Positions 2 to 50,685 of a DNA stretch of 64,000 nt are shown here, in pieces. This DNA is from Candidatus Poribacteria bacterium (GTDB taxonomy: Bacteria; Poribacteria; WGA-4E; B28-G17): assembly GCA_021162805.1 (NCBI GenBank), contig JAGGXZ010000182.1:17009-81008 (forward strand). Direction: 5' to 3'. Under the pieces are notes generated by a model. The model saw only the letters and a program-made list of their open reading frames with translations, was not told the origin of the DNA and made no database searches. The translations under genes and the position numbers were made by a program. How positions within the stretch are numbered: position 1 is the first letter of the stretch; each line of letters begins with the position of its first letter.

Positions 2-523
2 TATGCCCTCACCCCGGACGGCCAGAGGGCGGAGATCGCCGAGAGGAGTATCTCGTTGGGCCCGGGCGAAAGGAGGAGGTTGAACCTCTCATACAGGCCG
101 TCCGAGTGGGGGAGATATAGGATAAGGGCGTTCCTGAACCTCAACCTCGGATCGCTTGAGACCGATTTCGGGAATAACTTCGCCTCGGGCGAGGTTGAGG
201 TGAGACGATCGCCCGCGGTATGGGGTTCAGCTACGGTCTATCCGAATCCCTACAACGGCGGCCGCCTTCGCATGGCGTATCAGCTGAGCTCTGACGCCGA
301 CGTATTCGTCAAGATCTACGATCTAACAGGCCATCTCATCGGGGAGAGGGAATTCGTCAGCGGCACGAAGGGCGGGTTGTGGGGCCCTAACGATGTGGTC
401 ATATGGGACGGGAAAAATCGGTTCGGCGAGAAGGCAGCATCGGGGATCTATCTGATCCATCTCATCGCTGTAAATCAACACGGGAGCGTCGAGATAGGGA
501 GGAGAGTATGTCTCGTAAAGTGA
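2..523 (+). CDS. 3' end of a secreted protein ending in a T9SS-type (Por/FlgD-Ig-like) C-terminal sorting domain. The 5' end lies outside the window.
   Basis: The frame starting at nt 2 stays open to the stop at 521-523. The last ~90 aa (VYPNPYNGG...IYDLTGHLIGE...WDGKNRFGEKAASGIYLIHL) carry the same YPNP / IYxLxG / WDxK...GxY pattern as the C-termini at 2245-2535 and 41757-42027. Confidence 0.5.
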   Translation, partial: YALTPDGQRAEIAERSISLGPGERRRLNLSYRPSEWGRYRIRAFLNLNLGSLETDFGNNFASGEVEVRRSPAVWGSATVYPNPYNGGRLRMAYQLSSDADVFVKIYDLTGHLIGEREFVSGTKGGLWGPNDVVIWDGKNRFGEKAASGIYLIHLIAVNQHGSVEIGRRVCLVK

Positions 524-2535
524 TCCCGATCCTCATCCTCCCTCTGATCCTGATGATGATCCCCTTCCTTTACGCCGCTCCGCCCCATCCTGATCTCGTG
601 AGACGATGGAAGAGAGAAGGTGATATGACCCTCTCCTCTCAACTGCCGTTTGCCGGCCACGATCTCAGACCCGGCCGCTACGCCATTCCGATGAAGGATG
701 GGATCGAATATGTGCTTGTGATACGGGTGGATTTTCCCGATAAACCCGCCGTCAGATCGAAGGAGGAGGTGGACGGCTTCTTCTTCGGCAGGGATCAGGT
801 CTCGCTTTATACTTATTATAAGGAGGTCTCTTACGGCAAGATGACCATCTCCCCGGGACCTATGGGCGGCAGTCTCCCTTGGGGTGAGAAGTGGTATAGG
901 ATGCCAAAGAGGATGAGCTATTATGGCGAGGGGCGAATGATGCTCGATCGATATCATGAGCTGATACGGAACGCCTGCGACGCCGCCGATCGGGACATCG
1001 ATTTCTCGAAATACGATAGGGACGGGGACGGATATGTCGATCACCTGATGTTGATACACGCCGGGGACGATGAGGCTTCCTCAGGCCGGTTTGAGGATAT
1101 CTGGTCGATGTTGATCCCATCGGTCAACCTCAGATATGACGGCGTTCGGATAAACAACGTCGCCGTCGTAGCCGAGGAGCCGAGCTACCCGAAGCCTCAT
1201 CTGGGAATCTTCTTCCATGAGTTCTTCCATGATTTCGGTGCGCCCGACCTTTACAGCGGCAGTGTGGCGGGGCCACATGACCAGCAATGGAGCTTGATGG
1301 GGATGTTCGGGCCTTATCAGGGGGCGAATAGGAACGGACTTGCGCCCGCCCACATCTGTGGATATCTCAAATGGGATTTCGACGCCAGGCCGGAAAACGG
1401 CCGGCACGGATGGATCAAGCCGGTGGAGATCACGCAAAATACGGAGGCGCTCGTCATACCCGCCTTCGAGACGGGCGATCCGGATAAGGTCCTCTACAAG
1501 ATAGATATCCCCGGCAAAAACGGTAGGGAGTTCTTCCTCATAGAGAACCGCGAGAGAAACTCGGGGGGGATGTATGACACATATCTTCCAGAATCCGGAA
1601 TTCTGATCTGGCATATAGATGAGACCGCCCCTCGAAGCGATACGAACGCGTCGGAAAGGGTATGGGTGGAGGATCCGTCCGATCCTGAGCATCTCGATCT
1701 GGAGCATATAACCGCCGGGGCCGCCTATTCTCTGGATGACGGCCAGACCGAGTTCACCCCATCGTCCGAGCCGAACAGCGATGCCAACGACGGCACGCCC
1801 TCCGGCATATCGATCGTCAACATCGGACATGAGGGGATCAAGATGCCGATCACGGTCTACTTCGGCGATACCTTCGAGCCGAACGACACGATCCAGCTCG
1901 CCTACGGGCCGCTGCTTTACGGGATCAGCTACGCGTCCTATATATTCGACGGGAACGATCCGGCCGACGTATACAGGATCGATCTCAAAAGGGGCGAGCC
2001 GGTGGAGATAAAGGTGGAGGATATCCCTGAGGGGGTGGTGATCGATGCCAAGCTGGTGGATGGGCTCGGCAACGTGTTGGCGAAAAGTGAGGAGGGGGAA
2101 AAGGGGTTTATCATCCTTTACAACCCGCCCGGCACCGGAACCGGATATCTGGTGGTAAGACGTATATCCGGATACGACCCGATCCACGCCTATCACGTCC
2201 GCATCGATCCTGTCACTCCATCATCCTCGCCGTTGAAGCTCACCAAGGTCTACGCCTATCCCAATCCGGTCCATCGAGGGGATAACGTGAGGTTCCACTT
2301 CGAGCTCGAGAACAAGGGCATGGCTGATGTGGTGGAGATATCCGTCTTCAATTTGAACCTGGATAGAGTTTACGGTGGGAAGATGGAGGATGTTATAGGG
2401 CGAAACGAATTCGGACCGTGGGATCTGAGAGATCCTAACGGCAGGAGATGCGCTCCGGGGATATATCTCTATCTTATCTCAGCCCGCCGAGGGAAAGATG
2501 TCTCCAGGGCGATCGGCAAGCTGGCGATTGAGTGA
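508..2535 (+). CDS. Secreted M6-family zinc metalloprotease (immune inhibitor A-like) with a PPC domain and a T9SS-type C-terminal sorting domain
   Basis: RBS AGGGAGGAG lies 4 nt upstream of ATG 508. N-terminus is hydrophobic (IPILILPLILMMIPFLYA). HEFFHDFGAPDLY is an HExxH zincin motif as in M6/InhA. There is an EPNDTIQLAYGP...DPADVYRI pre-peptidase C-terminal-like segment. The C-terminus reads VYAYPNPVHRGDNV...WDLRDPNGRRCAPGIYLYLI. Confidence 0.75.
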   Translation: MSRKVIPILILPLILMMIPFLYAAPPHPDLVRRWKREGDMTLSSQLPFAGHDLRPGRYAIPMKDGIEYVLVIRVDFPDKPAVRSKEEVDGFFFGRDQVSLYTYYKEVSYGKMTISPGPMGGSLPWGEKWYRMPKRMSYYGEGRMMLDRYHELIRNACDAADRDIDFSKYDRDGDGYVDHLMLIHAGDDEASSGRFEDIWSMLIPSVNLRYDGVRINNVAVVAEEPSYPKPHLGIFFHEFFHDFGAPDLYSGSVAGPHDQQWSLMGMFGPYQGANRNGLAPAHICGYLKWDFDARPENGRHGWIKPVEITQNTEALVIPAFETGDPDKVLYKIDIPGKNGREFFLIENRERNSGGMYDTYLPESGILIWHIDETAPRSDTNASERVWVEDPSDPEHLDLEHITAGAAYSLDDGQTEFTPSSEPNSDANDGTPSGISIVNIGHEGIKMPITVYFGDTFEPNDTIQLAYGPLLYGISYASYIFDGNDPADVYRIDLKRGEPVEIKVEDIPEGVVIDAKLVDGLGNVLAKSEEGEKGFIILYNPPGTGTGYLVVRRISGYDPIHAYHVRIDPVTPSSSPLKLTKVYAYPNPVHRGDNVRFHFELENKGMADVVEISVFNLNLDRVYGGKMEDVIGRNEFGPWDLRDPNGRRCAPGIYLYLISARRGKDVSRAIGKLAIE

Positions 2536-23202: not shown

Positions 23203-23330
23203 AACGGATGAGCTGCTACCGCTTAAAGCGTTAAACATAATGCTTAACGAGATGCGATCGAAATTAGACATGAAACTGATGAAGGAATTCATAGGATTTC
23301 TCGCCCAGAGCGAGAAGGCCACTCCAATCC

Positions 23331-29184: not shown

Positions 29185-29499
29185 CTACTCTATCCGGGGC
29201 ATCGGCTCGTAGAGCGTGATATCTTCCATGGGATAATGATCCCTGTTGTAGGTGACGAGCACCAGGTTTAACACGTAAGCGGTTGCGGCAATTATAGCGT
29301 CCGCCTGTCCTAAAGTTAAACCCCGACGTCTGAACTCCCGCCAGTATTCCGCCGCCTTAAAAGCTATAGCTCCGTCCACGGGAATTTTATACAGCACGCT
29401 GAGGAATTGGCGGGTAACCTCCTCCTCTTCAGGACGTACCCCGATCCAGACTTCAAACACGGACAGCGTAGAGCAACCCAAAGGCTGTTCGACCTCCAT
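29185..29499 (-). pseudogene. PIN-domain (VapC-like) fragment, apparently N-terminally truncated
   Basis: GLTLGQADAIIAATAYVLNLVLVTYNRDHY matches the VapC C-terminal core (D.LIAATA...LvT.N..dF). The N-terminal ~40 aa with the first catalytic Asp are absent: an in-frame stop lies 6 codons upstream of the first Met. Confidence 0.4.
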
Positions 29500-31050: not shown

Positions 31051-34000
31051 ATGGAGAGAGGAAACAGGAGGCGTGGGACAGGAAAGAGGAAACAGAAAAG
31101 ATATCTCGGTCTTCTGCCTCCTGACTCCAGTCTCCGGTCTATCTGTAGAGCGATAACGCTCGTGACGTTTCTCCTCATAACCGGCTTCACGGCTTTCGGG
31201 GATAGCCCCGACACCTACATACTGCCCCTGTCACCGCCCAACGTCATCGGCCATTCGGATGTGACGATCTGGTGGAGCGGTAGACCCTCCGATGAAGCCG
31301 GATTGATCGGATTTTATTACAGCCTGGACGGCTCTCCCTTCACCTTCACCGATTCAAACCACGTCACCCTTTGGAATCTGACCAAGGGAGAGCATCGTCT
31401 GCTCGTCAAATCGATAGACAGCACGTTGAGACAGGACGATCAGCCGGCCGAGCTGAGCTTCAGGATCTCGCCGGTGGTGCGAGGTGAGCCGGAGGTGAAC
31501 GATACGCCCGATCTGGCGGTGGATCTGCCTCTGGGGGTGGAGATGAGAGGAGTGAGCCTGCTCGGCGGGGGAGACGTGGACTGGTATAAGGTCGCATTCC
31601 CTCAGGACGCTACCGCAGCGACGGTGACCTTCCGGAGGGATGGCGGAAACTCCTCCACTGAGATCTCGCTCTACCTGAACACGCCCTCCGAGGGGAATAA
31701 GGCTGCCTCCTTCAGCGTGAACGTCTCGAACGGCGAACGCGGATCGGCGACCGTCGGCATCTCTCCCGATTCGACCCTTTTCATCAAGGTCGCCCCGTCG
31801 CCCGACGAGAAACATCCCCTCTATATCCTCTCAGCCGATTACATCCCGGCCTCTCCCCATGGGATATGGGAGGTTGAGGATAATTCATCGCCCGCTTCCG
31901 CCACTCGATTGAGCCTCGTGGAGGATCGGGTCACGGCCATCGGCATGAAAAACGGGGATCAGGATTCATCCGATTGGTATAAACTGCATTTCGACCTCAC
32001 CTCTCCAAAGCTACTCAGGCTGAATCTGTCGAGGCTTCAAGCCGCCGGTGAGACATCGGTTCAGATCTTCAAGGGAGCGATCATCTCCGACATCTCCCAG
32101 GTCTCCGCCCTCTCCGTCTCGCCGCTGAGCAATGGATGGGGTTCGATCTCGTTCCTGGTCTCGTTCGGCGACTATTACGTCAGGGTGTCCAACGATCAGG
32201 AGGGGGTGGGAAACACCTACCAGATCACCCTCACGCTTGGCGATCTCCCGCCCGGATCAGAGTATGAACTTGAGCCTAACACGGTCTCCCCCCAGGAAAA
32301 CCCCGATTACGTCACTCCGCTCGGCGTGGAGATGGGGATCTACGGATATAGCTGGGGCGATGGGGATGATGACTGGTTCAAATTCAACCTCGGCAGGAAG
32401 GGTCTGCTCTGTCTGACGCTTCAGAGACCTGAGGGGATCGGTCAGACGGAGCTCCAGCTTTTCAACTCCAATCTGATACCGATCTCCTCCTTTCAGATCT
32501 CCCCATCAACCTCTCAGCGTGGAAGCCTCCCCGTTCCCGACGCCGATCCAGGAACATACTACGTCAAGATCGTCCCGTCGGGTGAAAGGGAGACGACGAG
32601 ATATAGGCTGAACGCCCTCTTGATAGGCTCGATAGAGCATAACGCTCAGGAGCCGCTCGGTCTGGGGGATGAACTCAGGGTAGCCGTAAATTGGACCGCC
32701 GGCAGGGAGGTGTATCTCACGCTGGAGGGGGATTTCCAGGACGAGGAGGCGAGGAAGCGATTTGAGAGGATGCCTTTGAGCGAGGTCTCGCCCGGCCGGT
32801 ATGAGCTGTCATATGTGTTGAGGGAAGGCGATTCGGTTGAAAACGCCAGGATGCTCTTCACCTTCAAGACCCCTCAAGGGGATGAGGCGCTTTACGAATA
32901 TTCCGAGAGGATCACCCTCCAGGCGGGAAAGGCCATTATAGATGCCAAACACGATGCCGATCACATCCTCAAGTCGGGCGAGAGGTTGACCGTAACCCTA
33001 ACCTCCTCGATAACCGACGGCACCGCCTCCTTCGACATAGTTGGAGGGACGAAGGATCCTTCGCCCTTACTCAGAGGGGGGATACCGCTCTACGGAGACG
33101 GCAGGGGGAACTATTCCGGCTCATACGTCGTCCAGGAGGGCGATCTGGTGAGAGAAGGAATCGTAAGGGTTAAACTCGTCGATAGATTCGGCACGAAGTA
33201 TGAGTTTGAGATAAAGGAGCCGGTTAGCATCGATGCCGTCAAACCCTCTCCACCCTCAGAGTTGAGGGGCGAGGACGTGCCGGAGGATAACGGCTTCCAG
33301 ATACAGTTGAGCTGGAGCCTTTCGCCCGATCCGGACGTATCGGAATACAACGTATATATCTCGCCTATCCCCATCACATCGCTTCAGGCGCTTTCGCCGA
33401 TAGCTCGCGTTAAGGGGAGGTCATGCCAGGTGCAGGTCGAGCGGAACGGCGTGGGCTATTATTTCGCCGTCACGGCGGTTGACATGGCCGGAAACGAATC
33501 GGATCTAAGCGATGGGGCCATAACGGGACCGGTTCAGGCGTTGGATAACCTCCCGCCAGCGGCTAAATCGGCATCACACGACGTAACCGGCATAGTTTCA
33601 ACCCTGAACCCCGTCATAAACGTCAAGCTCCAATCCGAGCCCGGAATCACTCCCCTTCTGACGATCCCCGGTCTGGTTCGGGATCTTCCACTTGAGGAGA
33701 AGAAAGACGGGGTCTACACCATAAGCTATTCGGTCCCCAAAGGGGTGGAGCTGAGGGACGTCCTGCTCTCCCTTAAGCTCAAGGACAAAGCTGGAAACGA
33801 AAGCTCGATCGATGTTCCCCCACCCATCACGATCGATACGAAACCGCCTCAGATCAAATCGGTCAAACATGACGGAACGAGGCTGCTGGTGGAGGGGGAT
33901 GAACTGAAGATCACGCTTGAAGGCGAGGTGGGATGTCAGGGATGGTTCGATATCGAAGGGCTGGTGAAGGGGATCCCGCTCTATGACGACGGCGAACACG

Positions 34001-37000
34001 GGGATGGCGCCGGCGGAGACGGGGTCTACGTCGGGACGTATCGGGTGAAGACGGGAGATAAGGCGATGGAGGCAGCGGTGGTGGCTCATCTGAAGGATAA
34101 GGCGGGCAATGAGTCGAGCATGGAAGCAGTCAGAAAGGTGAATCTGGACACAACCCCTCCCTCCATATCAAAGGCGAAGGTCGAGGGTGAAAGCTTCAAG
34201 CTGGGGGATGTGGTGAAGGTTGAGCTTTGGGGCGAGGCGGGATGTCAGGGTAAATTCCGGATAGAGGGGCTGGGCGTTGAGGGGAAGCTGTACGATGACG
34301 GCGAACACGGGGACGGAGAGGCGAATGACGGCATGTATGTGGGAAGCTGGAAGGTCGGGAGAGGCATCGGGGGAGAAGATCTGTCGGTGATAGCTATCCT
34401 TGAGAAGTCCAACGGCAAGTCGGTTCAGATCGAGGCGGGCAGTGTCAAGGTGGACGGCGTTCCCCCGCCTGAGGTGGAAGGGGTGAAGGTCGAGGATGTC
34501 CCGGACGATGAGGGATACAGGGTCAGGGTCAGTTGGCAGGGAGTGAAAGTTGAGGACCTGAAGGGATATCTCGTCTACCTCAGCTCCGACAGCATAGGGG
34601 ATCTCTCGACGATGAGCCCTATTGCCGAGACGGAGAAGGAGAGCGTTCTGCTGGATGTGGAGGAGAACGGGCGGCAGTATCATTTCGCCGTGGTGGCCGA
34701 GGACGAGGCGGGCAATATCTCCGCCTTAGGCGCCGGCAGTGTCACTGTGGGAGACGCGCTGGATAATCTCGCTCCTCCGAAGCCCATCGATCTGAAAGCC
34801 GAGATGGTGGAGGGGGGAAGGATCTACATCGGATGGGAATACCCGAGCCTACCGGCCGACTGGGCTGCCTTCAAAGTTTATATATCACAGAATCCAAATC
34901 TCTCCGGAGGAGAACTCGTCCGGATCACCCATAACCAGGTCAGATCGGCCGATCTGCCGGCAGATAAGGATGGGGATTACTACATAGGGCTCAGCGCCGA
35001 GGATATCAGCGGGAACGAGTCGGAGATAATCCGGATCGGGCCGATCAGGGCGGGCGCAATCTCAGCCATGGATGAGAGGCTTATCTCCCTTCCAAAAGGG
35101 ATCATAAGGGGGGATGGCGTGCTCGTCTGGTGGAGAGGATGGAAGAATGGAGGGACGAAAGATTTCAGATATCGCCTGGATGGAGTTGAGGGGGAAGCTG
35201 AGGGACCATATCTTCTCATCCGATCGCTCACCCCAGGCGATCACGAACTGGAGATAGAGCTTAACGGAGAGGTTATATCCCGCGAGTTTCGAATCGAGCC
35301 GATGGAGCTGAAACTGGACGGGAAAAAGGAGACCATCCTCCCCAACGCCAAGCTCATCGGCCCCGGCACATGCAGCCTCGTCCTGATGAGAGACGCCACG
35401 CTCAATCTGGTCGGCGAAAACGGCGGCGTCGAGGTAAAGCTCTATCGAGACGATGACCTTCTTATGGAGGGCCAGGGGGCGATATCGCTTAAGGCGGGGA
35501 TATATAGGGTGGAGACGAAGGGAAGCGTGACCATCTATCAGAGTCCCCTCGCAGCAGATGCGGATATGGAACCCAACGATGAGGATGGCTTTCCCCTTCA
35601 TGGCGATTCGATCATCTCAGGCATGATCCAGAGAAAGGGCGATGTTGATCTCTACCGCCTCCGCGTTGAAGGAGGAGAGAGGCTGGCCGTGACCTTGATC
35701 TCCTGGGGCAACCTCCAGCTCGGTATCAGGGACGAGAGGGGAACTGAAGTGGAAACCGATGAGGACCAGGATGGGGGATATCGGTTCTATCTGAGCCATC
35801 CCCTGAGCGCGGGGGAGTACGTTATCGAGGTTAAGGGTGATGCCGGGGCGATCTATCAGATAGGCCTGATCATCCTGAAGGGCATAGGGGTCGATCGAAG
35901 GGCGATGATGAAAGCCGGGGATCTGCTGAGGGTGACCGTCGATTGGGCGACGGCCGGCGAGATATGGGGCGAGGTGAAGGGATTGATCGAGCCCGTGAGG
36001 CTCTCCGGAAGCGGAGGGTTGATGGGAATGGAATATAGGATAAAGGACGGCGATGATCTCTCAGACGGCAGGGTGAGGCTGGAATTCAACGTCTCAGGCG
36101 AGGTGATCCCCTTCGAGATCCCCGGCGTGAGGATAAACGTGGACACCGTCCCTCCCAGGATAACCCGGGCTCAGCATGACGCCGTCAAACCGCTTAAGGC
36201 CGGGGATAAGATCGGGATCGAGGTGGGCGGCGAAAGCGGATGCGAGGGGTGGTTCGAGATAACGGGAATCGCCGAGGAGATACCGCTTCAGGAGAAGGAG
36301 GCCGGAAGGTACGAGGGGGAATATCAGGTGAGGGAAGGGGATAACACGTCGGGCTCTGACGTGATATGCTATCTCCGAGACGGGGCCGGTAACGAGACCA
36401 AGGCGGTCGTGAAGGGCAGATCGGGCGAGTTCGACAAGGTCGTGATCGATACGCTCCCGCCCCGTATAGATGAGGTGAGCTATGAGGGAGAGGGGGTGCT
36501 AATTGAAGGACAGATCCTCAAGGTGATCGTGAAGGGTGAGGCGGGCTGTCAGGCTTGGTTCGATATCGGCGAACTCAGACATGATCTCCCGCTTGAGGAG
36601 AAAAGGGAGGGGGAATACGAGGGAAGCTATCAGGTGAAGATGGGCGATCAGGCCCTGGGCGTCAGGATAATCGCCCATCTGAAGGACGCCGCCGGAAACG
36701 AGAGCGTCGTCGAGTCGCGGGACGCCCTGGACATAGATACCATCCCGCCGCAGATAGAGTCGGTCGAGCACGATGCGACGAGGACCCTTAGGCTCGGCTC
36801 AGTTCTCACCGTGCGCGTTAAGGGGACGCCGGGCTGCGATGCCAGATTCTCGATAGAGGGGGTCGTCGAAGACCTTCCACTCGGTGAGACGGGAGATGGG
36901 AATTACATCGGAACCTATACGGTCAAGGAGGGCGATAGCGCCGATAGGGCGAAGGTGATCGTTCGCCTGGTCAAACCAAACGGGAAGTCCGCCTCAAAAT

Positions 37001-40000
37001 CGGCCTCCCTCAGGATCTCAATCGACACCGATCCGCCCGAGCCGGTCCAGGGGGTCACTGCTGCCGATAAGCCTCTCGATGAAGGATTCACCCTGATTCT
37101 ATCCTGGGATCGATCGGATGAGCCTGACTTCTACGCATACAGGATCTATCGTTCGCCCACGCCCATCCTCTCGACGGAGGAACTTAAGCCGATCCTCGAG
37201 CTCAGATCGGCGGATATCACCCGAACCGAGGTGAATGTGCCGGAGAACGATTCGGACTACTACTTCGCCGTGACGGCGGTGGATGAGGCCGGCAACGAAT
37301 CGAAGCTGTCGCTTAAGTCGGGGGGCTCCATCTTCGGCCCCATCAGAGCCCTGGATAACCTCCCCCCGCCTCCCGTCACGGGCGTTCGGGCCGAGGATCG
37401 GCCGAGCGATCTGGGAGGTGTGATCGTCCTCAGATGGGATGGGCCCTCCCCGGCGGAGGACTTCAGCCGGTATAACCTCTACGTCTCAAGAGAGCCGATC
37501 GCCTCTACGGAAGGGCTCAACCCGATAAAAGTCCCCGATCGGAACGTCACGGCCTATGAGGTGCAGACGGCGGACGGGGTGGATTACTATTTCGCCGTGA
37601 CGGCGGTGGACAGATCGGGCAATGAGTCCCCCTTAGCTACGACGTCCGTCTTCGGACCGGTTCAATCCATCCCGAACATACCTCAGGGTGAGCCCGTGCC
37701 CGGCCGGATCGTCGCCGCTCCGCTGGGATTATCGCTCTCCGACGCTGTGATATTTCATCTTTCCCGGTGGGTTCCCTCGCCCGAGCCGAAACCCATCCCC
37801 GGATACCTGTATCGATTGGATGACGGATCATATGAGCTTTCCGCGAGCAGCCATATCGCCTTTTTCGGGCTCGCCGACGGGGGACATGTCTTTTGGGCGA
37901 AACCGGCGGATCGCCCCGACACGCAGCCGATCAAATGGGAGTTCAACGTGTTGAGAAGTCCCGTGAGGGAATCCGAGCCGAACGACACACCTGAAACGGC
38001 GTTCCGCCTGAGCTCCGGCCAGCCGGTTGTGGGAACCAACTCCGATGACGGCGATGTGGACTGGTTCTCGATACAGATCGACTCACCGGGGATGCTCGAT
38101 ATTACCTTCGGAAGGGAGAAGGGGATCGGGCGGAGCACGATCTCGATTTTCCATGGGTTGGAGACGGCCAAGGCGATCGATGAGTTCACCGTGGACCCCT
38201 CCACAGGCGGCAGAGGCCACTCGAGCGTAGGGGTCTCGCCCGGGCGGTATCTGGTAAGGGTTATCTCTAAGTCGGAAAACCCCGCGGCGGAGTATCGCAT
38301 CTGCGCTGTCTATCGCGAGCTCAAGCCGATCTACGCCTGGGAGGTCGAGCCCAACGACGAGTGGATGGCCGCGAACGCGGTTCGGATCGATAACGCCCTG
38401 GAGTTGATCGGCGAGGGAGGAGGAGGTGATAAGGACTGGTTCACCTTCACGGAGACCGTTGAAGGCGAGATGCTGGAGCTGAAGCTCATACGATCGGGCG
38501 GAAAAAGCACGATCAGGCTGATCACATTTTACGGATCGCCCTCCGAAGGCGGGGTTCAGGTGGACGAGCTGAGTCTGGATTCCGATCATGCGGAGGCCGA
38601 AAGCTGGGTGGGATTAAAAGCGGGAAAGTATTACATGCTTATAGAGAGTCCCGATAAACCTCCCCGATTTGAATACTCGCTTCTCCTGATCAAGAGGAAA
38701 CCCGAGGGATCGATGGAGTTCGAGCCGAACGATAAGCCCGATATGGCTTCCGGTATATCGGTTGACGACGTAATATCCTGCAGAACCTTCTCGAACGGGG
38801 ACGTCGATCTATACGCCCTTCAGGTCAAATCGCACGGATCGCTCGCCATCGGAATCGAGAGGGCGAACGCAGTGGGGAAAACGATAGCGGAGCTGAAACG
38901 GCTCGACGGCACGATGATCGCCTCGGCGAAGGCCGATCCCTCAAATGAGGGCCGGGCCTCCTTGAACGCGGAGGTCAACCCCGGAGGATATCTCCTGGCA
39001 GTCAGGACGGAGAACGAGAGGCCGGGCGATTATACGATCACGACCGCTCTGGTGAAATCCGCCTTGCATGATGCCCGAAAGCCGCTCGGCATCGGCGATA
39101 AACTGAACGTCCGGATCGAGTGGCTCCCCGAAAAAAGGGTCACGCTCACCCTGCCCAAGGTGATCAGGGACATCGAGATGAATGAGGAGGAGCCCGGGGT
39201 TTATACGGCGAGCTATACGGTGAAGGAGGGGGATACACTTTCCGATCAACCCTATGTGAGCCTCTTCCCTGACGTCTCGACCTCTGAAGCGGCGAGGCTT
39301 TTCCTCCAGCCTCAGATTCTGATAGACACGATGCCGCCCGGGATAGAGGAGATCTCCCATGACGGTCACGATCCGATTCCGCTCGGCGGAACGTTGCACG
39401 TTAAGCTCAAAGGCGAGCCCGGCTGCAAGCTCGCATATTTCGAGATCCGGAAAGGCGATTTCCTGAGAAGGGTCGAGATGGAGGAAAAGGAGAAGGGGGT
39501 TTATGAGGGCGAATACACCGTTGTCTCCGGGGATGACGTCCGGGGTGCCTCCGTGGTGGGGTATCTGGAGGATGAGGTCGGGAACGTCAGCAGCAGAGAG
39601 GCCTTCACGCCTGTGACCTTCGACACCTTACCTCCGGAGATCACCGATCTCTCAGTCCTTATCTCCAGGGGAGGAGGGGATTTCGTCCCTGTCGACGTGA
39701 CGTCCGACAGGGTTTTAGGAGAGAGCGATTCCCTCAAGGTCGTCATCAGATCTGAGCTCAACGCTAAAGCCGAATTCGAGATCGAAGGGTTCAAATCGGG
39801 GTTGAAGCTGAGAGATGACGGCGCTCAGGGGGATGAGGTGGCCGGTGACGGGATATACGCCGGAATCTACGTCGTCCATAGGGGCGACTCGATCGAAAAC
39901 ACCCCCATCAAGGTCATCGTCACCGATAAGGCCGGCAACTCACAGGAGTTATACGCGCCGGTTACGATCACCATAGATGCTGTCCCGCCTAAGATCCAGG

Positions 40001-42027
40001 AGGTGACCCATAACGGCGACAAACCCCTCAGGAGGGGCGATCTGCTTGTGGTGAAGCTGAAGGGCGAGCCCGGAAACAGGGCTTCGTTCAACATAAACAA
40101 CCGAAAGGATAAAAAGGGAAAGCTCGTGAAGATCCCGATGGCCGATGACGGCACGGGATATGACGAGACGGCGGGCGACGGCATATACACGGGCGTCTAT
40201 GAGGTCAGACCGGATGATAGCATATTGAACGGGTCTCTGATCGGCTTCCTGGCGGATGAGAACGGCAATGAGAGCTTCAAGTTCTCGCCCAAACCGCTGA
40301 CACTGGATTCCACCCTGCCTGAGCCGATCGAGGGGCTGACCGCTCAGGATAAGCCGGACGATGAGGGTTATGTGATAATCCTCTCGTGGCAGCCGAGCAA
40401 AGAGACCGATTTCGATCACTACAACGTCTATCGCGAGACGAAACGGATAAGCATAACAAGAGGGTTGATCCCCGTCCTGAGCAACCTCACCCTGCCGCAG
40501 ATGACCACGGCAGAGGTGCCGGTTCCGGCGAATAACACCGACTATTACTTCGCCGTCACCGTGGTGGATAAGGCCGGAAACGAGTCACTGATCCGGGACG
40601 GCTCCTGGGTCGGGCCCGTTCAGGCCTGGGATAACATCAAACCCGATCCGGTTACCAAGGTGACGGCGGAGGATTATCCGGATGATCAGGGGAAAGCACT
40701 GCTGGTGAAATGGGATACCCCTTCGGCCGCGGAGGATTTCGATCACTATAACATCTACGTATCGACGACGGAGATAAGGACGTTGAATGAGTTGAAACCC
40801 GCTGCGTCTGAACCCAATAGGGAGGCCTATTCCGTCAAGGTCGAGGTCGATGAGGATAACGTCCCGTATTATGTCGCTGTCACGGCGGTTGACAGGAACG
40901 GGAACGAGTCGGACCTCGACGCTCTTGGGAACTCAACCTGGGGGCCTGTTCAGTCCCTGGATAACATCCCACCTCAGCCTGTAACCGGAGTCTACGCCTA
41001 TGACACCCCCGGGGATGAGGGCGGAAGGATAACCGTGGTTTGGAGTCCGGAAAAGGACCTGAGCGTGATCGAGCACAGGATCTACATCTCCTCCGGACAG
41101 ATCACACCGGATGAGGATCTCTCGAAGCTGGAGTTCATCACCGTTCCCGTCCCAGCATTTGAACGGCAGGTTGACGTTCAGAGCGACACGGCGATCTACG
41201 TCGCCGTAACGGCCGTCGATTCGGGCGAAAATGAGTCGAAGCTCACCTCCGACTCAGTATGGGGGCCCGTATATGCCGTGTCGAACAGGGTGAAGGCGGA
41301 TAGGGAGACGGTTATCTATGCCGGATTCGATCCGAGAATACGGATCAAACTGCCCATCGGATCGGGCGAGGAGGGGAAACTGCTGGACATCCTGATACCG
41401 GAAGATCCCGAGATACTCAAGCGTATAGATGAGGCCAACAGGCTTTCGGCCCTGGATATCTCGCTCATAAACCCGGATTACGAGGAGGAACTTCAAAGTA
41501 CGGTCATCCAGGTCTCCTATACCGGCAGGAGGCTCTCCAAGCCGGCCGAGCTTACGCTATCGTATCCGGAGTTCACCGATAACGCCGGGGTGGAGAGGAG
41601 GGTGAGGATATTCAGGCTGAATCCGTCTTCGACGACGGGCGTCTGGGAGCTTCTTCCGGGCAGGCAGGTCGTCGATACGATCCGAAACACCGTGACCGCC
41701 TCCACGGATACCCTCTCGGCCTTCAGGGTGGCGGTTTTAAATCTGCCTCAGACTCTGGACAAGGTCAAGGTCTATCCCAACCCCTATATCTACGGTCGAT
41801 CTTCGAGCGGCAGGATCACCTTCGTGAATCTGCCTGAGAAGGCGACGATACAGATCTACACGCTGACGGGCGAGCTTGTAAGAACTATCCAGGTCGAGCC
41901 GATGGCCGGGAGGGCATCGTGGGATCTGAAAAACGAGGCGGGCAGACCGGTCGGAGGTGGGATATACGTCTATCTGGTTAAAGGTGAAACAGGTAAAGCC
42001 CGAGGGAGGATAGTCATATTGAAATAG
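31051..42027 (+). CDS. Giant (3658 aa) multi-domain cell-surface protein with PPC-like, fibronectin-III-like and Ig-like repeats and a T9SS-type C-terminal sorting domain
   Basis: A single uninterrupted ORF. The N-terminus is basic with a hydrophobic segment. About 7 PPC-like modules (E.EPND...GDVDWYK/F). About 8 FN3-like modules (...LSW.....YNVY.S...YYFAVTAVD.AGNES). About 10 Ig-like modules (D..PP.I......GD.L.V.L.GE.GC...F.IEG...L.D.G..GD..AGDG.Y.G.Y.V). The final 90 aa (KVYPNPYIYG...IQIYTLTGELV...WDLKNEAGRPVGGGIYVYLV) is the CTD. Confidence 0.85.
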   Translation: MERGNRRRGTGKRKQKRYLGLLPPDSSLRSICRAITLVTFLLITGFTAFGDSPDTYILPLSPPNVIGHSDVTIWWSGRPSDEAGLIGFYYSLDGSPFTFTDSNHVTLWNLTKGEHRLLVKSIDSTLRQDDQPAELSFRISPVVRGEPEVNDTPDLAVDLPLGVEMRGVSLLGGGDVDWYKVAFPQDATAATVTFRRDGGNSSTEISLYLNTPSEGNKAASFSVNVSNGERGSATVGISPDSTLFIKVAPSPDEKHPLYILSADYIPASPHGIWEVEDNSSPASATRLSLVEDRVTAIGMKNGDQDSSDWYKLHFDLTSPKLLRLNLSRLQAAGETSVQIFKGAIISDISQVSALSVSPLSNGWGSISFLVSFGDYYVRVSNDQEGVGNTYQITLTLGDLPPGSEYELEPNTVSPQENPDYVTPLGVEMGIYGYSWGDGDDDWFKFNLGRKGLLCLTLQRPEGIGQTELQLFNSNLIPISSFQISPSTSQRGSLPVPDADPGTYYVKIVPSGERETTRYRLNALLIGSIEHNAQEPLGLGDELRVAVNWTAGREVYLTLEGDFQDEEARKRFERMPLSEVSPGRYELSYVLREGDSVENARMLFTFKTPQGDEALYEYSERITLQAGKAIIDAKHDADHILKSGERLTVTLTSSITDGTASFDIVGGTKDPSPLLRGGIPLYGDGRGNYSGSYVVQEGDLVREGIVRVKLVDRFGTKYEFEIKEPVSIDAVKPSPPSELRGEDVPEDNGFQIQLSWSLSPDPDVSEYNVYISPIPITSLQALSPIARVKGRSCQVQVERNGVGYYFAVTAVDMAGNESDLSDGAITGPVQALDNLPPAAKSASHDVTGIVSTLNPVINVKLQSEPGITPLLTIPGLVRDLPLEEKKDGVYTISYSVPKGVELRDVLLSLKLKDKAGNESSIDVPPPITIDTKPPQIKSVKHDGTRLLVEGDELKITLEGEVGCQGWFDIEGLVKGIPLYDDGEHGDGAGGDGVYVGTYRVKTGDKAMEAAVVAHLKDKAGNESSMEAVRKVNLDTTPPSISKAKVEGESFKLGDVVKVELWGEAGCQGKFRIEGLGVEGKLYDDGEHGDGEANDGMYVGSWKVGRGIGGEDLSVIAILEKSNGKSVQIEAGSVKVDGVPPPEVEGVKVEDVPDDEGYRVRVSWQGVKVEDLKGYLVYLSSDSIGDLSTMSPIAETEKESVLLDVEENGRQYHFAVVAEDEAGNISALGAGSVTVGDALDNLAPPKPIDLKAEMVEGGRIYIGWEYPSLPADWAAFKVYISQNPNLSGGELVRITHNQVRSADLPADKDGDYYIGLSAEDISGNESEIIRIGPIRAGAISAMDERLISLPKGIIRGDGVLVWWRGWKNGGTKDFRYRLDGVEGEAEGPYLLIRSLTPGDHELEIELNGEVISREFRIEPMELKLDGKKETILPNAKLIGPGTCSLVLMRDATLNLVGENGGVEVKLYRDDDLLMEGQGAISLKAGIYRVETKGSVTIYQSPLAADADMEPNDEDGFPLHGDSIISGMIQRKGDVDLYRLRVEGGERLAVTLISWGNLQLGIRDERGTEVETDEDQDGGYRFYLSHPLSAGEYVIEVKGDAGAIYQIGLIILKGIGVDRRAMMKAGDLLRVTVDWATAGEIWGEVKGLIEPVRLSGSGGLMGMEYRIKDGDDLSDGRVRLEFNVSGEVIPFEIPGVRINVDTVPPRITRAQHDAVKPLKAGDKIGIEVGGESGCEGWFEITGIAEEIPLQEKEAGRYEGEYQVREGDNTSGSDVICYLRDGAGNETKAVVKGRSGEFDKVVIDTLPPRIDEVSYEGEGVLIEGQILKVIVKGEAGCQAWFDIGELRHDLPLEEKREGEYEGSYQVKMGDQALGVRIIAHLKDAAGNESVVESRDALDIDTIPPQIESVEHDATRTLRLGSVLTVRVKGTPGCDARFSIEGVVEDLPLGETGDGNYIGTYTVKEGDSADRAKVIVRLVKPNGKSASKSASLRISIDTDPPEPVQGVTAADKPLDEGFTLILSWDRSDEPDFYAYRIYRSPTPILSTEELKPILELRSADITRTEVNVPENDSDYYFAVTAVDEAGNESKLSLKSGGSIFGPIRALDNLPPPPVTGVRAEDRPSDLGGVIVLRWDGPSPAEDFSRYNLYVSREPIASTEGLNPIKVPDRNVTAYEVQTADGVDYYFAVTAVDRSGNESPLATTSVFGPVQSIPNIPQGEPVPGRIVAAPLGLSLSDAVIFHLSRWVPSPEPKPIPGYLYRLDDGSYELSASSHIAFFGLADGGHVFWAKPADRPDTQPIKWEFNVLRSPVRESEPNDTPETAFRLSSGQPVVGTNSDDGDVDWFSIQIDSPGMLDITFGREKGIGRSTISIFHGLETAKAIDEFTVDPSTGGRGHSSVGVSPGRYLVRVISKSENPAAEYRICAVYRELKPIYAWEVEPNDEWMAANAVRIDNALELIGEGGGGDKDWFTFTETVEGEMLELKLIRSGGKSTIRLITFYGSPSEGGVQVDELSLDSDHAEAESWVGLKAGKYYMLIESPDKPPRFEYSLLLIKRKPEGSMEFEPNDKPDMASGISVDDVISCRTFSNGDVDLYALQVKSHGSLAIGIERANAVGKTIAELKRLDGTMIASAKADPSNEGRASLNAEVNPGGYLLAVRTENERPGDYTITTALVKSALHDARKPLGIGDKLNVRIEWLPEKRVTLTLPKVIRDIEMNEEEPGVYTASYTVKEGDTLSDQPYVSLFPDVSTSEAARLFLQPQILIDTMPPGIEEISHDGHDPIPLGGTLHVKLKGEPGCKLAYFEIRKGDFLRRVEMEEKEKGVYEGEYTVVSGDDVRGASVVGYLEDEVGNVSSREAFTPVTFDTLPPEITDLSVLISRGGGDFVPVDVTSDRVLGESDSLKVVIRSELNAKAEFEIEGFKSGLKLRDDGAQGDEVAGDGIYAGIYVVHRGDSIENTPIKVIVTDKAGNSQELYAPVTITIDAVPPKIQEVTHNGDKPLRRGDLLVVKLKGEPGNRASFNINNRKDKKGKLVKIPMADDGTGYDETAGDGIYTGVYEVRPDDSILNGSLIGFLADENGNESFKFSPKPLTLDSTLPEPIEGLTAQDKPDDEGYVIILSWQPSKETDFDHYNVYRETKRISITRGLIPVLSNLTLPQMTTAEVPVPANNTDYYFAVTVVDKAGNESLIRDGSWVGPVQAWDNIKPDPVTKVTAEDYPDDQGKALLVKWDTPSAAEDFDHYNIYVSTTEIRTLNELKPAASEPNREAYSVKVEVDEDNVPYYVAVTAVDRNGNESDLDALGNSTWGPVQSLDNIPPQPVTGVYAYDTPGDEGGRITVVWSPEKDLSVIEHRIYISSGQITPDEDLSKLEFITVPVPAFERQVDVQSDTAIYVAVTAVDSGENESKLTSDSVWGPVYAVSNRVKADRETVIYAGFDPRIRIKLPIGSGEEGKLLDILIPEDPEILKRIDEANRLSALDISLINPDYEEELQSTVIQVSYTGRRLSKPAELTLSYPEFTDNAGVERRVRIFRLNPSSTTGVWELLPGRQVVDTIRNTVTASTDTLSAFRVAVLNLPQTLDKVKVYPNPYIYGRSSSGRITFVNLPEKATIQIYTLTGELVRTIQVEPMAGRASWDLKNEAGRPVGGGIYVYLVKGETGKARGRIVILK
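33530..34440 (+). repeat. Block 1 of tandem ~100-aa Ig-like repeats inside the giant gene (3 copies)
   Basis: Repeats begin DNLPPAAKS / DTKPPQIKS / DTTPPSISK. Two copies share near-identical DNA, e.g. tacgatgacggcgaacacgggga at ~33978 and ~34290. Confidence 0.6.
36130..37040 (+). repeat. Block 2 of tandem Ig-like repeats inside the giant gene (3 copies)
   Basis: Repeats begin DTVPPRITR / DTLPPRIDE / DTIPPQIES. Each has G.PGC(E/Q/D)..F.I.G and GDG.Y.G.Y.VK.GD. Confidence 0.6.
39325..40310 (+). repeat. Block 3 of tandem Ig-like repeats inside the giant gene (3 copies)
   Basis: Repeats begin DTMPPGIEE / DTLPPEITD / DAVPPKIQE. Same motif set. Confidence 0.55.
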
Positions 42028-42035: not shown

Positions 42036-42788
42036 ATGAGATACCTGATAATGGGCGATATCCATGCCAATATGGAGGCCTTCGAAGCCGTCTTGAAAGA
42101 GGCTATGGGGTTTTCGCCCGATGTATGCCTTTTTCTAGGCGATGCCGTCGGATACGGTGCTGATCCGGATGAGGTCGTGATGAGGTTGCGGAGGTTGATC
42201 CCTCAATTTTCTAAATTCTTCGCCGTCAGGGGGAACCACGATAAGGTTGCATCCGGGGTGGAGGAGGGGTGGAGTTTCACCGAGCATGCCCGTAAGGCGG
42301 CGCTGTGGACGAGGGAACACCTCTCACCGACGAACAGGAGCTACCTGAGGAGGCTGCCTCAAGGCCCAGTGGGCGTCAATCCCTCCATACAGATCTGTCA
42401 CGGATCGCCGATGGACGAGGACCTTTACATACTCAATAACTTCAGAGCATTGAACATTCTGAGCTATGACGAACACAGGATCACCTTCTTCGGCCATACG
42501 CATGTGCCCGTCGTATACGAGCTTCTCGGCGACCACTTTCACGTCAACCTGCCCTCAGGCGATGAGAGCATATTCAAACTCCATCCCGAAGGCAGGTATC
42601 TGATCAATCCCGGATCGGTGGGCCAGCCGAGGGACTTCAATCCCAAGGCCAGCTTCGCGGTTTATGATGACGATGAGGAAACGATCACGATAAAGAGGGT
42701 GAGCTACGATATCGAAAGGGCGGCCGATAAGATCGTAAAGAGCAACCTGCCGGGCGTGAACGCCGAAAGGCTTTTCATCGGGAGGTGA
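42036..42788 (+). CDS. Metallophosphoesterase (calcineurin-like phosphoesterase family)
   Basis: GDIHAN, GDAVGYG, GNHD and GHTH motifs. Starts 9 nt after the giant gene's stop. Confidence 0.8.
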   Translation: MRYLIMGDIHANMEAFEAVLKEAMGFSPDVCLFLGDAVGYGADPDEVVMRLRRLIPQFSKFFAVRGNHDKVASGVEEGWSFTEHARKAALWTREHLSPTNRSYLRRLPQGPVGVNPSIQICHGSPMDEDLYILNNFRALNILSYDEHRITFFGHTHVPVVYELLGDHFHVNLPSGDESIFKLHPEGRYLINPGSVGQPRDFNPKASFAVYDDDEETITIKRVSYDIERAADKIVKSNLPGVNAERLFIGR

Positions 42789-49689: not shown

Positions 49690-50685
49690 CTAGAAGCTTA
49701 AGGTGAGCGATGCCCTGTGTGCGTCGCCCAGATCACCGTATGAGATGAAAGCGTAATCTATCCTATAGTTTCCGGATCTATATCCTATTCCGCCGCTGAG
49801 CCTTGAAAGACCGGATCGATCGGGATCCGTCCGATATCCCACCCTAAGTGAGAATCCATTGGCCATTTGATATTCCGCTCCCAATCTGAACAGATTTGCT
49901 CCGCTGGAAGGCAGATCAGCCTCACAGGCCAGTATAAGTCTGTTTTCGGGGGGAGGTCCGCCTTCGGCGACAGCTCTTCTACGTCCTTTGAACTTCAACT
50001 GGTAGCTAGCTCCGAAGGCGATTTCGGTGGGGATGACGGCGGTTTTCGATGAGAATCCCTCCGCGCTGAACTTCACGTCCCTATAGCAGACTCCTACCCT
50101 CAGATCGGGAAGCGGCGTTTCGTAGATAAGGCCAAAAGAAAAGGATGAGCCCTGTCTTTGGTATTGGGGCATAGAGGAAGACGTCCCTTCGAAGGAGAGG
50201 CCGCTGCGAGCCAGCTTGAAGGTCGTTCCCAGCCTTACATTCATCATCGGAGCTGTTCCGAGGCCTACCTGAAAGAGGGTATCGGAATAACTGAAGGTTC
50301 CATCCTCCGCGTATCCCCACGCTCCGGCGCTTGACTCGACCGTTCTGACATCGGGGGGAGCATGGAGGTATGAGATGGAGGCGGCGACGGTGAAGAGATC
50401 GGCTATGGGCTGGGCGAAGCTGATCCATTCGTATCGTATGCCTCCGAACCACTCGTAATGCGATGCCATCAGTTGTGGAGAGTTCAACCCACTTAGACCG
50501 GCGGGATTGAGGGATAAGGAGGAGATATCGTCGGCCATACCGACACATGCCTCTCCCATACCGGACGATCGGACTCCCATGGATATCCCCATCACCTGGA
50601 AATCCACCGTTCCTCTCGTTCCCTCCTCCGCGGCGGCTGGGAAGATAAGGATGATGGACAGTATCAACGCCAGCAGAACACGCAT
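49690..50685 (-). CDS. Outer-membrane beta-barrel protein of the FadL/PorV/PorQ-like family
   Basis: Signal peptide. N-terminal GVRSSGMGEACVGMADDISSLSLNPAGL resembles the FadL/PorV N-terminal motif (G.Ra.GmGGA..A.aDDasA...NPAGla). Alternating beta-strand pattern with C-terminal ...LTLSF (aromatic terminus). About 331 aa. Confidence 0.5.
   Translation of the reverse strand: MRVLLALILSIILIFPAAAEEGTRGTVDFQVMGISMGVRSSGMGEACVGMADDISSLSLNPAGLSGLNSPQLMASHYEWFGGIRYEWISFAQPIADLFTVAASISYLHAPPDVRTVESSAGAWGYAEDGTFSYSDTLFQVGLGTAPMMNVRLGTTFKLARSGLSFEGTSSSMPQYQRQGSSFSFGLIYETPLPDLRVGVCYRDVKFSAEGFSSKTAVIPTEIAFGASYQLKFKGRRRAVAEGGPPPENRLILACEADLPSSGANLFRLGAEYQMANGFSLRVGYRTDPDRSGLSRLSGGIGYRSGNYRIDYAFISYGDLGDAHRASLTLSF

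Follow-up and report, generated by a model that had tools for sequence, protein, structure and literature searches.

A single unbroken open reading frame (ORF) of the uncultured Candidatus Poribacteria, at 31051-42027 on the forward strand of the analysed stretch of DNA (64,000 nucleotides, referred to as the window), encodes a giant protein of 3658 aa in which 31 modules are ordered in three super-repeats, followed by a tail and a C-terminal sorting domain (CTD). The evidence supports a non-catalytic, modular protein built from PPC, FN3 and Ig-like beta-sandwich units, which is probably a Sec-exported, CTD-sorted and Ca2+-stiffened adhesin fibre of the cell surface; since it combines a signal peptide with a type A CTD, it is best read as an adhesin-like protein, located at the surface or secreted. 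The block structure of the super-repeats is unusually regular and previously undescribed, its component domains all being known.

The first-pass annotation of this DNA had reported one ORF of ~10.98 kb, which was confirmed, and a GGAGG Shine-Dalgarno sequence was found ~8 nt 5' of its ATG. The predicted product has a mass of 398 kDa and is acidic (pI 4.7). By inspection, its N-terminus was predicted to form a Sec signal peptide in which a strongly basic n-region precedes a hydrophobic core (aa 31-49, the sole hydrophobic 19-mer in the entire protein), followed by AFG|D. Comparison with a 96%-identical relative gave dN/dS values of 0.13-0.29 and showed no stop codons, on the basis of which the gene is, judged from its sequence, functional. 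A scan of the whole window detected no Rfam family at the gathering threshold; a regulatory RNA in the 163-nt leader was considered and rejected, the sole weak match being a spurious snoRNA (E=0.11).

Modules were delimited by fragment BLAST and by iterative HMMs built from the protein itself; full-length self-BLAST of the protein returned the identity match alone. The census comprised 7 PPC-like, 8 FN3, 13 Ig-like and 3 Y_Y_Y-like head modules (per-domain i-E 1e-24 to 1e-53 in super-repeat A), and their order follows H-PPCn-Ign-FN3n three times before a 164-aa tail and an 85-aa CTD (Table 1), each super-repeat containing a Y_Y_Y-like head, 1-3 PPC, 4-5 Ig-like and 2-3 FN3 modules. Earlier estimates of ~7 PPC and ~8 FN3 modules proved to be exact, and that of ~10 Ig-like modules has to be raised to 13. 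The Ig-like triplets previously placed at 33530-34440, 36130-37040 and 39325-40310 correspond to aa 829-1139, 1695-1996 and 2756-3090, respectively, and the PPC sites at 35550-35880 and 37950-38900 to aa 1505-1620 and 2307-2678. Overall, the block layout that had been proposed holds for the module classes and their places, but it missed the three heads and the stretches at aa 1419-1504 and aa 3410-3573. The first of these stretches, 87 aa following the second head module, had no Pfam match and scored ~1 bit against every module HMM, which leaves its interpretation as a degenerate PPC module unsupported; the same applies to the 164-aa tail as a degenerate module, likewise at ~1 bit.

Table 1. 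Features of the giant gene and its surroundings in the window (positions in nucleotides of the window; aa, residues of the 3658-aa protein; H, head; P, PPC; I, Ig-like; F, FN3)
Feature	Position	Strand	Composition	Basis
M6-family metalloprotease with same CTD type	403..2535	+		TIGR03296, 152.6 bits
Third CTD, in partial window-edge ORF	2-520			CTD HMM, E=1e-8; TIGR04183, 24.9 vs 23
Start codon and predicted Sec signal peptide	31051..31200	+	aa 1-50	Inspection of sequence
Super-repeat A	31231..35052	+	H-P-P-P-I-I-F-I-I-I-F-F: head aa 61-142; PPC x3 aa 146-277, 274-409, 411-535; Ig x2 aa 519-628, 624-732; FN3 aa 725-830; Ig x3 aa 829-1139; FN3 x2 aa 1132-1334	Intragenic HMMs
Super-repeat B	35086..37668	+	H-[87 aa]-P-I-I-I-I-F-F: head aa 1346-1418; 87-aa stretch aa 1419-1504; PPC aa 1505-1620; Ig x4 aa 1604-1996; FN3 x2 aa 1989-2206	Intragenic HMMs
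Super-repeat C, family-invariant terminal block	37714..41277	+	H-P-P-P-I-I-I-I-F-F-F: head aa 2222-2305; PPC x3 aa 2307-2678; Ig x4 aa 2660-3090; FN3 x3 aa 3083-3409	
Conserved tail, between last FN3 and CTD	41278..41769	+	aa 3410-3573	
CTD and stop codon	41770..42027	+	aa 3574-3658	T9SS type A / FlgD-Ig type
Metallophosphoesterase	42036-42788	+		Pfam Metallophos/Metallophos_2
Zn-dependent alcohol dehydrogenase	42792-43805	+		Pfam ADH_N/ADH_zinc_N
PorV/PorQ-family outer-membrane beta-barrel	49690..50685	-		NF033709, 100.3 bits vs 90

Searches with domain profiles upheld the assignment to the PPC, FN3 and Ig-like classes. The FN3 class matched Pfam fn3 (PF00041) with 73.1 bits, against a threshold of 25. 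Single Ig-like modules gave weak profile matches, and at the whole-protein level Big_13 (42.4 vs 27 bits), Big_3_2 (40.5 vs 23.3) and DUF4625 (30.5 vs 27) passed their thresholds, as did choice_anch_X (NF041940; 86.4 bits vs 25) in four stretches; no significant match of the Ig-like class was found among PDB sequences. For the PPC class, a profile of the seven copies matched the collagen-binding domains of the clostridial collagenases ColG/ColH (E=5e-10 to 3.6e-6), with EKENND...D..DYY of ColG aligned to the consensus ExEPND...GDvDWY, a part of ColG that we take to be its double-Ca2+ site. The motif ExEPND...GDxD[WL][YF] (E-x-E-x-N-D ... D-x-D) is intact in five of the seven copies, and the AF2 model of the PPC module reached a pLDDT of 80.8. 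The ColG/ColH collagen-binding domains are themselves PPC domains (PMC6168687), and both homology and fold are common to the PPC modules and solved PPC/CBD structures. Against Pfam PPC (PF04151), single modules covered the full profile length with scores of 15.8 and 18.3 bits (threshold 25.9), and there was no match at the whole-protein level. Because of the ColG/ColH homology and the motif in five of seven copies, the PPC modules would most likely represent ligand-binding, Ca2+-stiffened elements. The best single head module scored 13.7 bits against Pfam Y_Y_Y (PF07495; threshold 26.6), 7 of 27 head copies in the family gave weak Y_Y_Y matches (best E 0.0014), and the family profile of the head matched the Y_Y_Y region of the HTCS sensor 4a2l (E=0.0023). 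The AF2 model of the head is a 7-strand beta-sandwich, and the designation of the heads as Y_Y_Y-like is suggestive only.

The tail is present at the same position in every family member, with a length of 155-172 aa. It had no Pfam match, its homologs formed only 3 clusters in 5.8 billion sequences, and its AF2 model, derived from a 3-sequence alignment, was poor (pLDDT 25-60). The CTD passed TIGR04183 with 34.8 bits in the whole protein and 33.7 bits in isolation (cutoff 23; aa 3574-3656 of 3658), and Pfam FlgD_ig (PF13860) scored 28.5 bits against a threshold of 27 in the whole protein and 24.9 in isolation. Pfam Por_Secre_tail (PF18962) reached 15.0 and 17.4 bits (threshold 27). The AF2 model of tail and CTD combined was poor overall (mean pLDDT 51), with values of ~70-80 in the CTD, for which Foldseek retrieved PorZ (E=6e-5), PorU (2e-4), FlgD and the RemA CTD (TMt 0.67). 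The T9SS-type CTD recognised in the first-pass annotation, with the motifs quoted there, is thereby substantiated by TIGR04183, at a length of 85 aa. As an observation that weighs against the profile identities, two Pfam models, Por_Secre_tail and PPC, remained under their gathering thresholds.

An exhaustive search with a whole super-repeat as the query retrieved about a dozen giant proteins that keep the same module grammar; a query consisting of head and PPC (aa 2222-2434) gave no matches in a word-indexed database. All named members of the family are from Candidatus Poribacteria and are annotated only as 'hypothetical protein'. Orthologs contain from 2 to 4 blocks and measure 2,400-4,600 residues, and the ending H-P3-I4-F3-tail-CTD is invariant throughout the family.

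Directly downstream of the giant gene, the metallophosphoesterase and Zn-dependent alcohol dehydrogenase genes that had been noted before were recognised again, with gaps of 8 nt and 3 nt, respectively (the first being 23 nt if the 245-aa phosphoesterase start of other gene callers is right). Their co-transcription with the giant gene, earlier considered probable, is locally plausible in view of these tiny gaps and of a first terminator-like hairpin only at 44179, but the arrangement is not conserved: the downstream genes differ at both orthologous loci checked (L005 and L006), and therefore no functional link is implied. The giant gene alone is common to the neighbourhoods of the window and of L005, L006 or L007.

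Besides these genes, the window encodes a PorV/PorQ-family outer-membrane beta-barrel, 7.7 kb downstream of the giant gene, which also matches Pfam UPF0164 (27.5 vs 21.4 bits) and whose distant homologs match Pfam PorV (PF19572) and bear the name PorV/PorQ family. The barrel may belong to the machinery that sorts CTD proteins. Its NCBI name is only 'UPF0164 family protein', and UPF0164 also occurs in phyla without known T9SS. The M6-family metalloprotease has its CTD at aa 617-706 (E=5e-9 with the CTD HMM) and is presumed to be a second cargo of the same pathway. Moreover, two distant MAGs each have a strong PorV/PorQ gene (199 and 207 bits) immediately after the gene for a protein whose CTD is related. 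The earlier idea of CTD-dependent export is strengthened by the PorV/PorQ-family gene, the two further CTD proteins in the window and this recurring adjacency of CTD cargo and PorV. Genes for SprA/Sov, PorU, PorZ, PorK/L/M/N, GldKLMN or any further T9SS component besides the barrel were found neither in the 64-kb window nor in the 10 kb past its right edge, and it counts against the T9SS reading that the barrel is the sole putative T9SS component found. Flagellar and chemotaxis genes occur on the contig, the right flank consisting solely of chemotaxis and motility genes, and the source organism, which carries these genes, is motile; no gliding genes were found in the annotated parts of the contig.

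It is conceivable, albeit unlikely, that the CTD adopts a T9SS-like fold in an organism without a canonical T9SS, in which case the protein would follow another or reduced pathway (e.g., one with a PorV/PorQ-like barrel) or remain periplasmic or outer-membrane associated. In agreement with such a situation, Kamke et al. 2014 described TIGR04183 domains and no Por structural genes in single-cell genomes of Poribacteria, leaving the pathway open (PMC3909097), while NCBI taxonomy places Poribacteria outside the Bacteroidota and the FCB group, reviews limit T9SS to Bacteroidetes/FCB, and ~74 kb of the contig holds only the PorV/PorQ-family gene. However, the 2014 genomes were incomplete single-cell assemblies, T9SS genes are usually scattered and ~74 kb covers little of a genome, the curated type A profile recognises the CTD above its cutoff, and in other lineages such cargo has PorV-family genes next to it. 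For Poribacteria, which were reported to have many Por-type CTD proteins, a reduced or divergent outer-membrane pathway based on a PorV/PorQ-like barrel, with the lineage-restricted giant family as its largest cargo and as the main contact organ of the cell, appears quite doubtful.

In the preferred reading of a CTD-sorted surface adhesin, the N-terminal signal peptide would direct export via Sec, after which the type A CTD would carry the protein over the outer membrane via a type IX (Por) or Por-like pathway, and the barrel may take part in this sorting; the CTD was matched directly by its profile, and the pathway is what we infer from that match. At the surface, ~31 tandem modules could form a fibre of ~100-140 nm, a length estimated from the module count with ~4 nm per module assumed. 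The CTD end with the invariant H-P3-I4-F3-tail would be nearest to the cell and the variable blocks would point outward, with Ig-like and FN3 modules as spacers and PPC modules as possible binding sites for a protein or polysaccharide polymer.

Soluble release is common among the type A CTD cargoes of Flavobacterium, and the giant protein might similarly lose its CTD and serve as an extracellular matrix or substrate-capture scaffold together with neighbouring secreted hydrolases. Such a role would fit the presence in the window of the M6 protease with its CTD and of several genes that resemble glycoside hydrolases (DUF5060/apiosidase-like, GH129-like and GH127-like). We nevertheless consider it improbable, as no cohesin/dockerin-like pairing modules were found, the hydrolase neighbours are not conserved beside orthologs, and the invariance of the block beside the CTD speaks for a fixed anchor at the cell-proximal end. 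Very improbable, too, is a self-assembling S-layer-like or sheath lattice over the cell instead of an adhesin fibre: its great size, acidity, repetitiveness, lack of catalytic domains and export would suit a lattice protein, but no SLH, S-layer or other known lattice domain was present among its Pfam and NCBIfam matches, which weakens the 'S-layer-like' label of the first-pass annotation, and a linear array of ~31 modules in a family with 2-4 blocks is typical of fibrillar adhesins and not of lattice subunits.

At the DNA level, tandem-repeat and DNA-repeat searches detected only diverged module homology. Exact direct repeats in the giant gene reach 20 nt at most (codon-shuffle mean 13.5, maximum 16), the DNA repeat families of the modules are 60-76% identical, and the modules share at most 51% amino-acid identity, several of them having their reciprocal best match in a distant ortholog of another species and not within their own protein. 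The stretches at ~33978 and ~34290 that had been described as near-identical turned out to be identical at 55 of 100 positions. With a longest exact repeat of 20 nt and families at 60-76%, the inference of duplication, recombination and collapse is therefore without basis: recent duplication or ongoing recombination is not supported, given the low amino-acid identity, the best matches in the ortholog and the dN/dS values, and neither is the suspected risk of assembly collapse, given the agreement of independent assemblies, with the contig of an independent MAG (L004) colinear with the giant gene. Repeat number was also compared in relatives, and an 82%-identical relative has an identical module count. 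It is hardly credible that the ORF is an artefact in which assembly produced a chimera or collapsed or expanded the repeats. Two short-read contigs (L001 and L002) do break within the gene, and the Ig-module DNA of L004 contains two 100-N runs; however, L004 matches 31243-41942 colinearly at 96% identity and differs in length by in-frame indels of 9 nt and 6 nt only, the same product of 3658 aa is called in ENA and JGI assemblies of other samples, the 82%-identical relative agrees in module count, and the longest exact repeat is far under read length.

Among characterised systems, SprB and RemA of Flavobacterium johnsoniae, giant adhesins that Bacteroidota secrete by T9SS, resemble the giant protein in combining a Sec signal peptide with a C-terminal T9SS sorting domain, in their size of hundreds of kDa, and in repeated beta-sandwich modules without a catalytic domain; display as a long filament would be expected for the giant protein as well, and the model of its CTD superposes on the translocon-bound RemA CTD (8gl6_D, TMt 0.67). 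The giant protein differs in its origin from another phylum, Ca. Poribacteria, where a T9SS is hypothetical, in the modules that it combines (Y_Y_Y-like head, PPC, Ig and FN3) and their super-repeat order, and in a host with flagellar and chemotaxis genes. Moreover, SprB uses a type B CTD, whereas that of the giant protein is of type A (TIGR04183). The likeness to ColG/ColH consists of profile homology (E=5e-10) and of the E-x-E-x-N-D and D-x-D elements kept in 5/7 copies, but the giant protein is without a peptidase and carries seven copies within a structural array, of which single copies are under the Pfam PPC threshold and for which collagen binding is hypothetical. The RTX adhesins LapA, SiiE and MpIBP, Ca2+-stiffened and exported by type I secretion, are analogous long acidic strings of Ig-like modules that hold ligand-binding modules away from the cell; the giant protein, however, has no RTX repeats or T1SS signal, and its candidate ligand-binding PPC modules stand in three groups and not at one tip. 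The 'eukaryote-like' repeat proteins of Kamke et al. 2014 (PMC3909097) come from the same phylum, have CTDs of the same family (TIGR04183) together with FN3 and bacterial Ig-like domains, and are likewise predicted to lie at the surface. That study lists domain families and not this giant family or its super-repeat grammar, and it did not find Por structural genes, in contrast to the PorV/PorQ-family gene close to the cargo in the window.

Since the component domains and giant CTD-tagged adhesins were already known, the finding is largely ordinary. It does define a coherent, unnamed family with a strict higher-order grammar, which provides a ready marker for Poribacteria. The occurrence of Por-type CTDs without recognised Por machinery in Poribacteria had been noted in 2014, and the window now shows a PorV/PorQ-family barrel encoded on the same contig as three CTD cargoes, making the question of the Por machinery directly testable in available MAGs. 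Finally, the giant family may represent the principal structure by which Poribacteria attach, and attachment matters for them as sponge symbionts or particle-attached cells.

The giant reading frame proposed by the first-pass annotation at 31051-42027 on the plus strand was borne out as one uninterrupted ORF of 3658 codons, with a Shine-Dalgarno sequence (GGAGG) approximately 8 nt 5' of its ATG. The encoded protein is large and acidic (398 kDa, pI 4.7), and its sole hydrophobic segment (aa 31-49) is located between a very basic N-terminus and AFG|D, a pattern read, by inspection, as a probable Sec signal peptide. Comparison with L004, an independent MAG contig, yielded dN/dS values of 0.13-0.29 across all module classes, which shows this genuine gene to be subject to purifying selection.

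Modules were counted by fragment self-BLAST combined with four iteratively built intragenic HMMs, which detected 7 PPC-like, 8 FN3, 13 Ig-like, and 3 head modules, arranged as three super-repeats that are followed by a tail and the C-terminal sorting domain (CTD). The 7 PPC and 8 FN3 modules counted earlier were thereby reproduced, whereas the earlier estimate of about 10 Ig-like modules was too low and the head class had been missed; the nucleotide positions previously assigned to the Ig triplets, and to the PPC groups further along, agree with the HMM-defined modules.

Architecture of the 3658-aa protein (H, head; P, PPC-like; I, Ig-like; F, FN3)
Feature	Position (aa)	Module order	Remark
Block A		H-PPP-II-F-III-FF	
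Block B		H-[87 aa]-P-IIII-FF	
Block C		H-PPP-IIII-FFF	
Head copy	61-142		intragenic HMM; overlooked at first pass
Head copy	1346-1418		intragenic HMM; overlooked at first pass
Head copy	2222-2305		intragenic HMM; overlooked at first pass
Unassigned stretch	1419-1504		87 aa in block B; outside all module classes
Tail	3410-3573		outside all module classes
CTD	3574-3658		

Profile searches established a non-catalytic, modular protein with true PPC, FN3, and Ig-like modules. FN3 scored 73.1 bits in Pfam (cutoff 25), and the Ig-like class reached summed scores of 42.4 for Big_13 (cutoff 27) and 40.5 for Big_3_2 (cutoff 23.3), while Ig-like modules taken singly scored weakly and the class had no match among PDB sequences. 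In four Ig-like copies, the motif DDGxxGDxxAGDGxY of NCBIfam 'choice-of-anchor X' was recognized (86.4 bits, cutoff 25). Single PPC modules remained below the Pfam cutoff of 25.9 (15.8 and 18.3 bits). The element ExEPND...GDxD[WL][YF], kept in 5 of the 7 PPC copies, aligned with the EKENND...D..DYY region of ColG, which forms the double-Ca2+ site of that protein. Moreover, the seven-copy PPC profile matched the collagen-binding domains of ColG and ColH (E=5e-10 to 3.6e-6), which are themselves PPC domains (PMC6168687). The head module is predicted to fold as a 7-strand beta-sandwich, its family profile matched the HTCS sensor 4a2l at E=0.0023, and Pfam Y_Y_Y matches, all below threshold, were obtained for 7 of 27 head copies; these profile matches are only suggestive of a weak resemblance to the Y_Y_Y domain.

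The repeats appeared considerably more diverged than initially proposed. The DNA stretches at ~33978 and ~34290, described as near-identical, share 55 of 100 positions, and no exact repeat in the gene exceeds 20 nt (codon-shuffle mean 13.5, maximum 16). DNA repeat families display 60-76% identity, and the most similar modules reach amino acid identities of 51% (FN3), 47% (Ig), and 32% (PPC). Recent duplication, as suggested from these repeats, was not supported: several modules pair by reciprocal best match with the ortholog at locus L006, which is 44% identical to the giant protein, rather than with modules of their own protein, and at least part of the array is therefore older than that split. 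Neither was the suspected assembly collapse supported, as 31243-41942 aligns colinearly with L004 (96% identity), interrupted only by two in-frame indels of 9 and 6 nt; the 3658-aa product was called likewise in other assemblies, and an 82%-identical relative has the same module count. Despite its diverged repeats, the gene is difficult to assemble from short reads: L004 contains two 100-N runs inside Ig-module DNA (4967-5066 and 7600-7699), standing for 230 and 224 nt (window 36224-36453 and 38987-39210), the short-read contigs L001 and L002 terminate within the gene, and a 1-nt indel in L002 breaks the tail ORF.

Exhaustive HMMER searching with the 1188-aa block C as query revealed around a dozen proteins, 2,439-4,629 aa long, each matching the block over its full length. 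In every one, a signal peptide and a head module form the N-terminus, and H-P3(4)-I4-F3, a tail of 155-172 aa, and a CTD form the C-terminus, with 1-3 further, variable blocks ahead of this invariant ending. Every named member carries the name 'hypothetical protein [Candidatus Poribacteria bacterium]', and tail homologs were restricted to 3 clusters among 5.8 billion sequences. Assemblies of other samples in ENA and JGI also contain the locus. The giant protein belongs to a conserved family, and its own gene is located close to genes for other CTD cargo and for a PorV/PorQ-family protein.

The downstream metallophosphoesterase and Zn-ADH genes were confirmed, with gaps of 8 and 3 nt. These gaps, and the lack of a terminator-like site between the giant gene and 44179, make the proposed co-transcription plausible; however, the orthologs at L005 and L006 have other downstream genes, so functional coupling is not implied. 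Directly upstream, two overlapping plus-strand ORFs in different frames (29644-30642, DUF5060 plus apiosidase-like, and 30372-30887) may represent a single glycoside-hydrolase gene cut by a frameshift or sequencing error. Radical SAM/SPASM and PIN-domain proteins are encoded at 27952-29499 (minus strand), between pyruvate:ferredoxin-oxidoreductase-like and glycoside hydrolase genes. The region 54001-56000 has a GC content of 0.475, versus ~0.52-0.58 in flanking windows, and contains short ORFs, one called UPF0236 (transposase-like) in public gene calls; it may be a small mobile-element remnant.

A flagellar cluster occupies 10844-24137 (plus strand), encoding FliM, FlhB, FlhA, an FlhF-like SRP GTPase, a MinD/ParA-like ATPase, and a FliA-type sigma factor. 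Chemotaxis and motility genes were also found in the 10 kb past the right edge, where a chemotaxis operon (CheA/B/R/W/X/Y, MCP, MotB) lies at 12359-21851 of the contig sequence L021. The source organism looks motile and free-living, and not an obligate sponge symbiont. An 852-aa HEAT-repeat and von Willebrand A protein (14659-17217, plus strand), encoded within this flagellar gene run directly upstream of FlhB, is an uncommon neighbour for genes of flagellar export. Approximately 650 nt upstream of the flagellar genes, 9124-10194 (plus strand) encodes a 356-aa protein that lacks a Pfam match and has an internal CTD HMM match (aa 170-223, E=4e-5); this protein could be a diverged form of the hook-cap protein FlgD, the FlgD Ig domain being related to the CTD fold.

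The T9SS-type CTD recognized earlier was substantiated by NCBIfam TIGR04183, the type A sorting domain, which matched the last 85 residues at 34.8 and 33.7 bits (cutoff 23), although the Pfam Por_Secre_tail cutoff of 27 was not passed (15-17 bits). The AF2 model of tail plus CTD is of poor quality as a whole (pLDDT 51), with values of ~70-80 within the CTD, and its best Foldseek neighbours were PorZ, PorU, FlgD, and the CTD of RemA as bound in the T9SS translocon. The CTD HMM also matched the C-terminus of an M6-family metalloprotease (403-2535, plus strand; TIGR03296, 152.6 bits) and a partial ORF at the left edge (2-520, plus strand), and the window therefore contains three cargoes of the presumed pathway. 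Furthermore, the minus-strand ORF 49690-50685 encodes an outer-membrane barrel of PorV/PorQ family model NF033709 (100.3 bits, cutoff 90), 100% identical to an NCBI 'Candidatus Poribacteria bacterium' protein named just 'UPF0164 family protein'. Its distant homologs contain Pfam PorV and are called PorV/PorQ family in Cloacimonadota, Zixibacteria, Fidelibacterota, and Elusimicrobia. Its minus-strand gene run comprises GlmU-like, Pta, and Fe-ADH-like genes and no T9SS cluster, and the window and the 10 kb past its right edge yielded no T9SS component other than this barrel. CTD cargo and a PorV/PorQ barrel form a recurring gene pair in two unrelated MAG loci retrieved with the tail plus CTD query, L008 (UBA9089, 13-3977) and L009 (Yes71-08, 56-2096): in both, a strongly matching PorV/PorQ gene (199 and 207 bits, respectively) comes immediately after, and on the same strand as, a gene for a CTD protein, which is clostripain-like in L008 and 362 aa long in L009. 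The other CTD proteins, the barrel, and these pairs lend extra weight to a CTD-dependent pathway.

The giant protein would thus be exported by the Sec system, after which its CTD would carry it over the outer membrane, to be anchored or displayed as a fibre of perhaps ~100-140 nm, in which the PPC modules could act as Ca2+-stiffened ligand-binding elements and the Ig-like and FN3 modules as spacers. It belongs to a known kind, the giant CTD-sorted adhesin-like surface proteins, and has a neat super-repeat grammar not described before. Poribacteria are placed outside Bacteroidota and the FCB group in NCBI taxonomy, and TIGR04183 domains have been described on poribacterial repeat proteins in a study that detected no Por structural genes and left the pathway open (Kamke et al. 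2014, PMC3909097). The protein provides a modest link to this open question on secretion in Poribacteria. The PorV/PorQ-family barrel stands in a phylum reported to be without Por structural genes.
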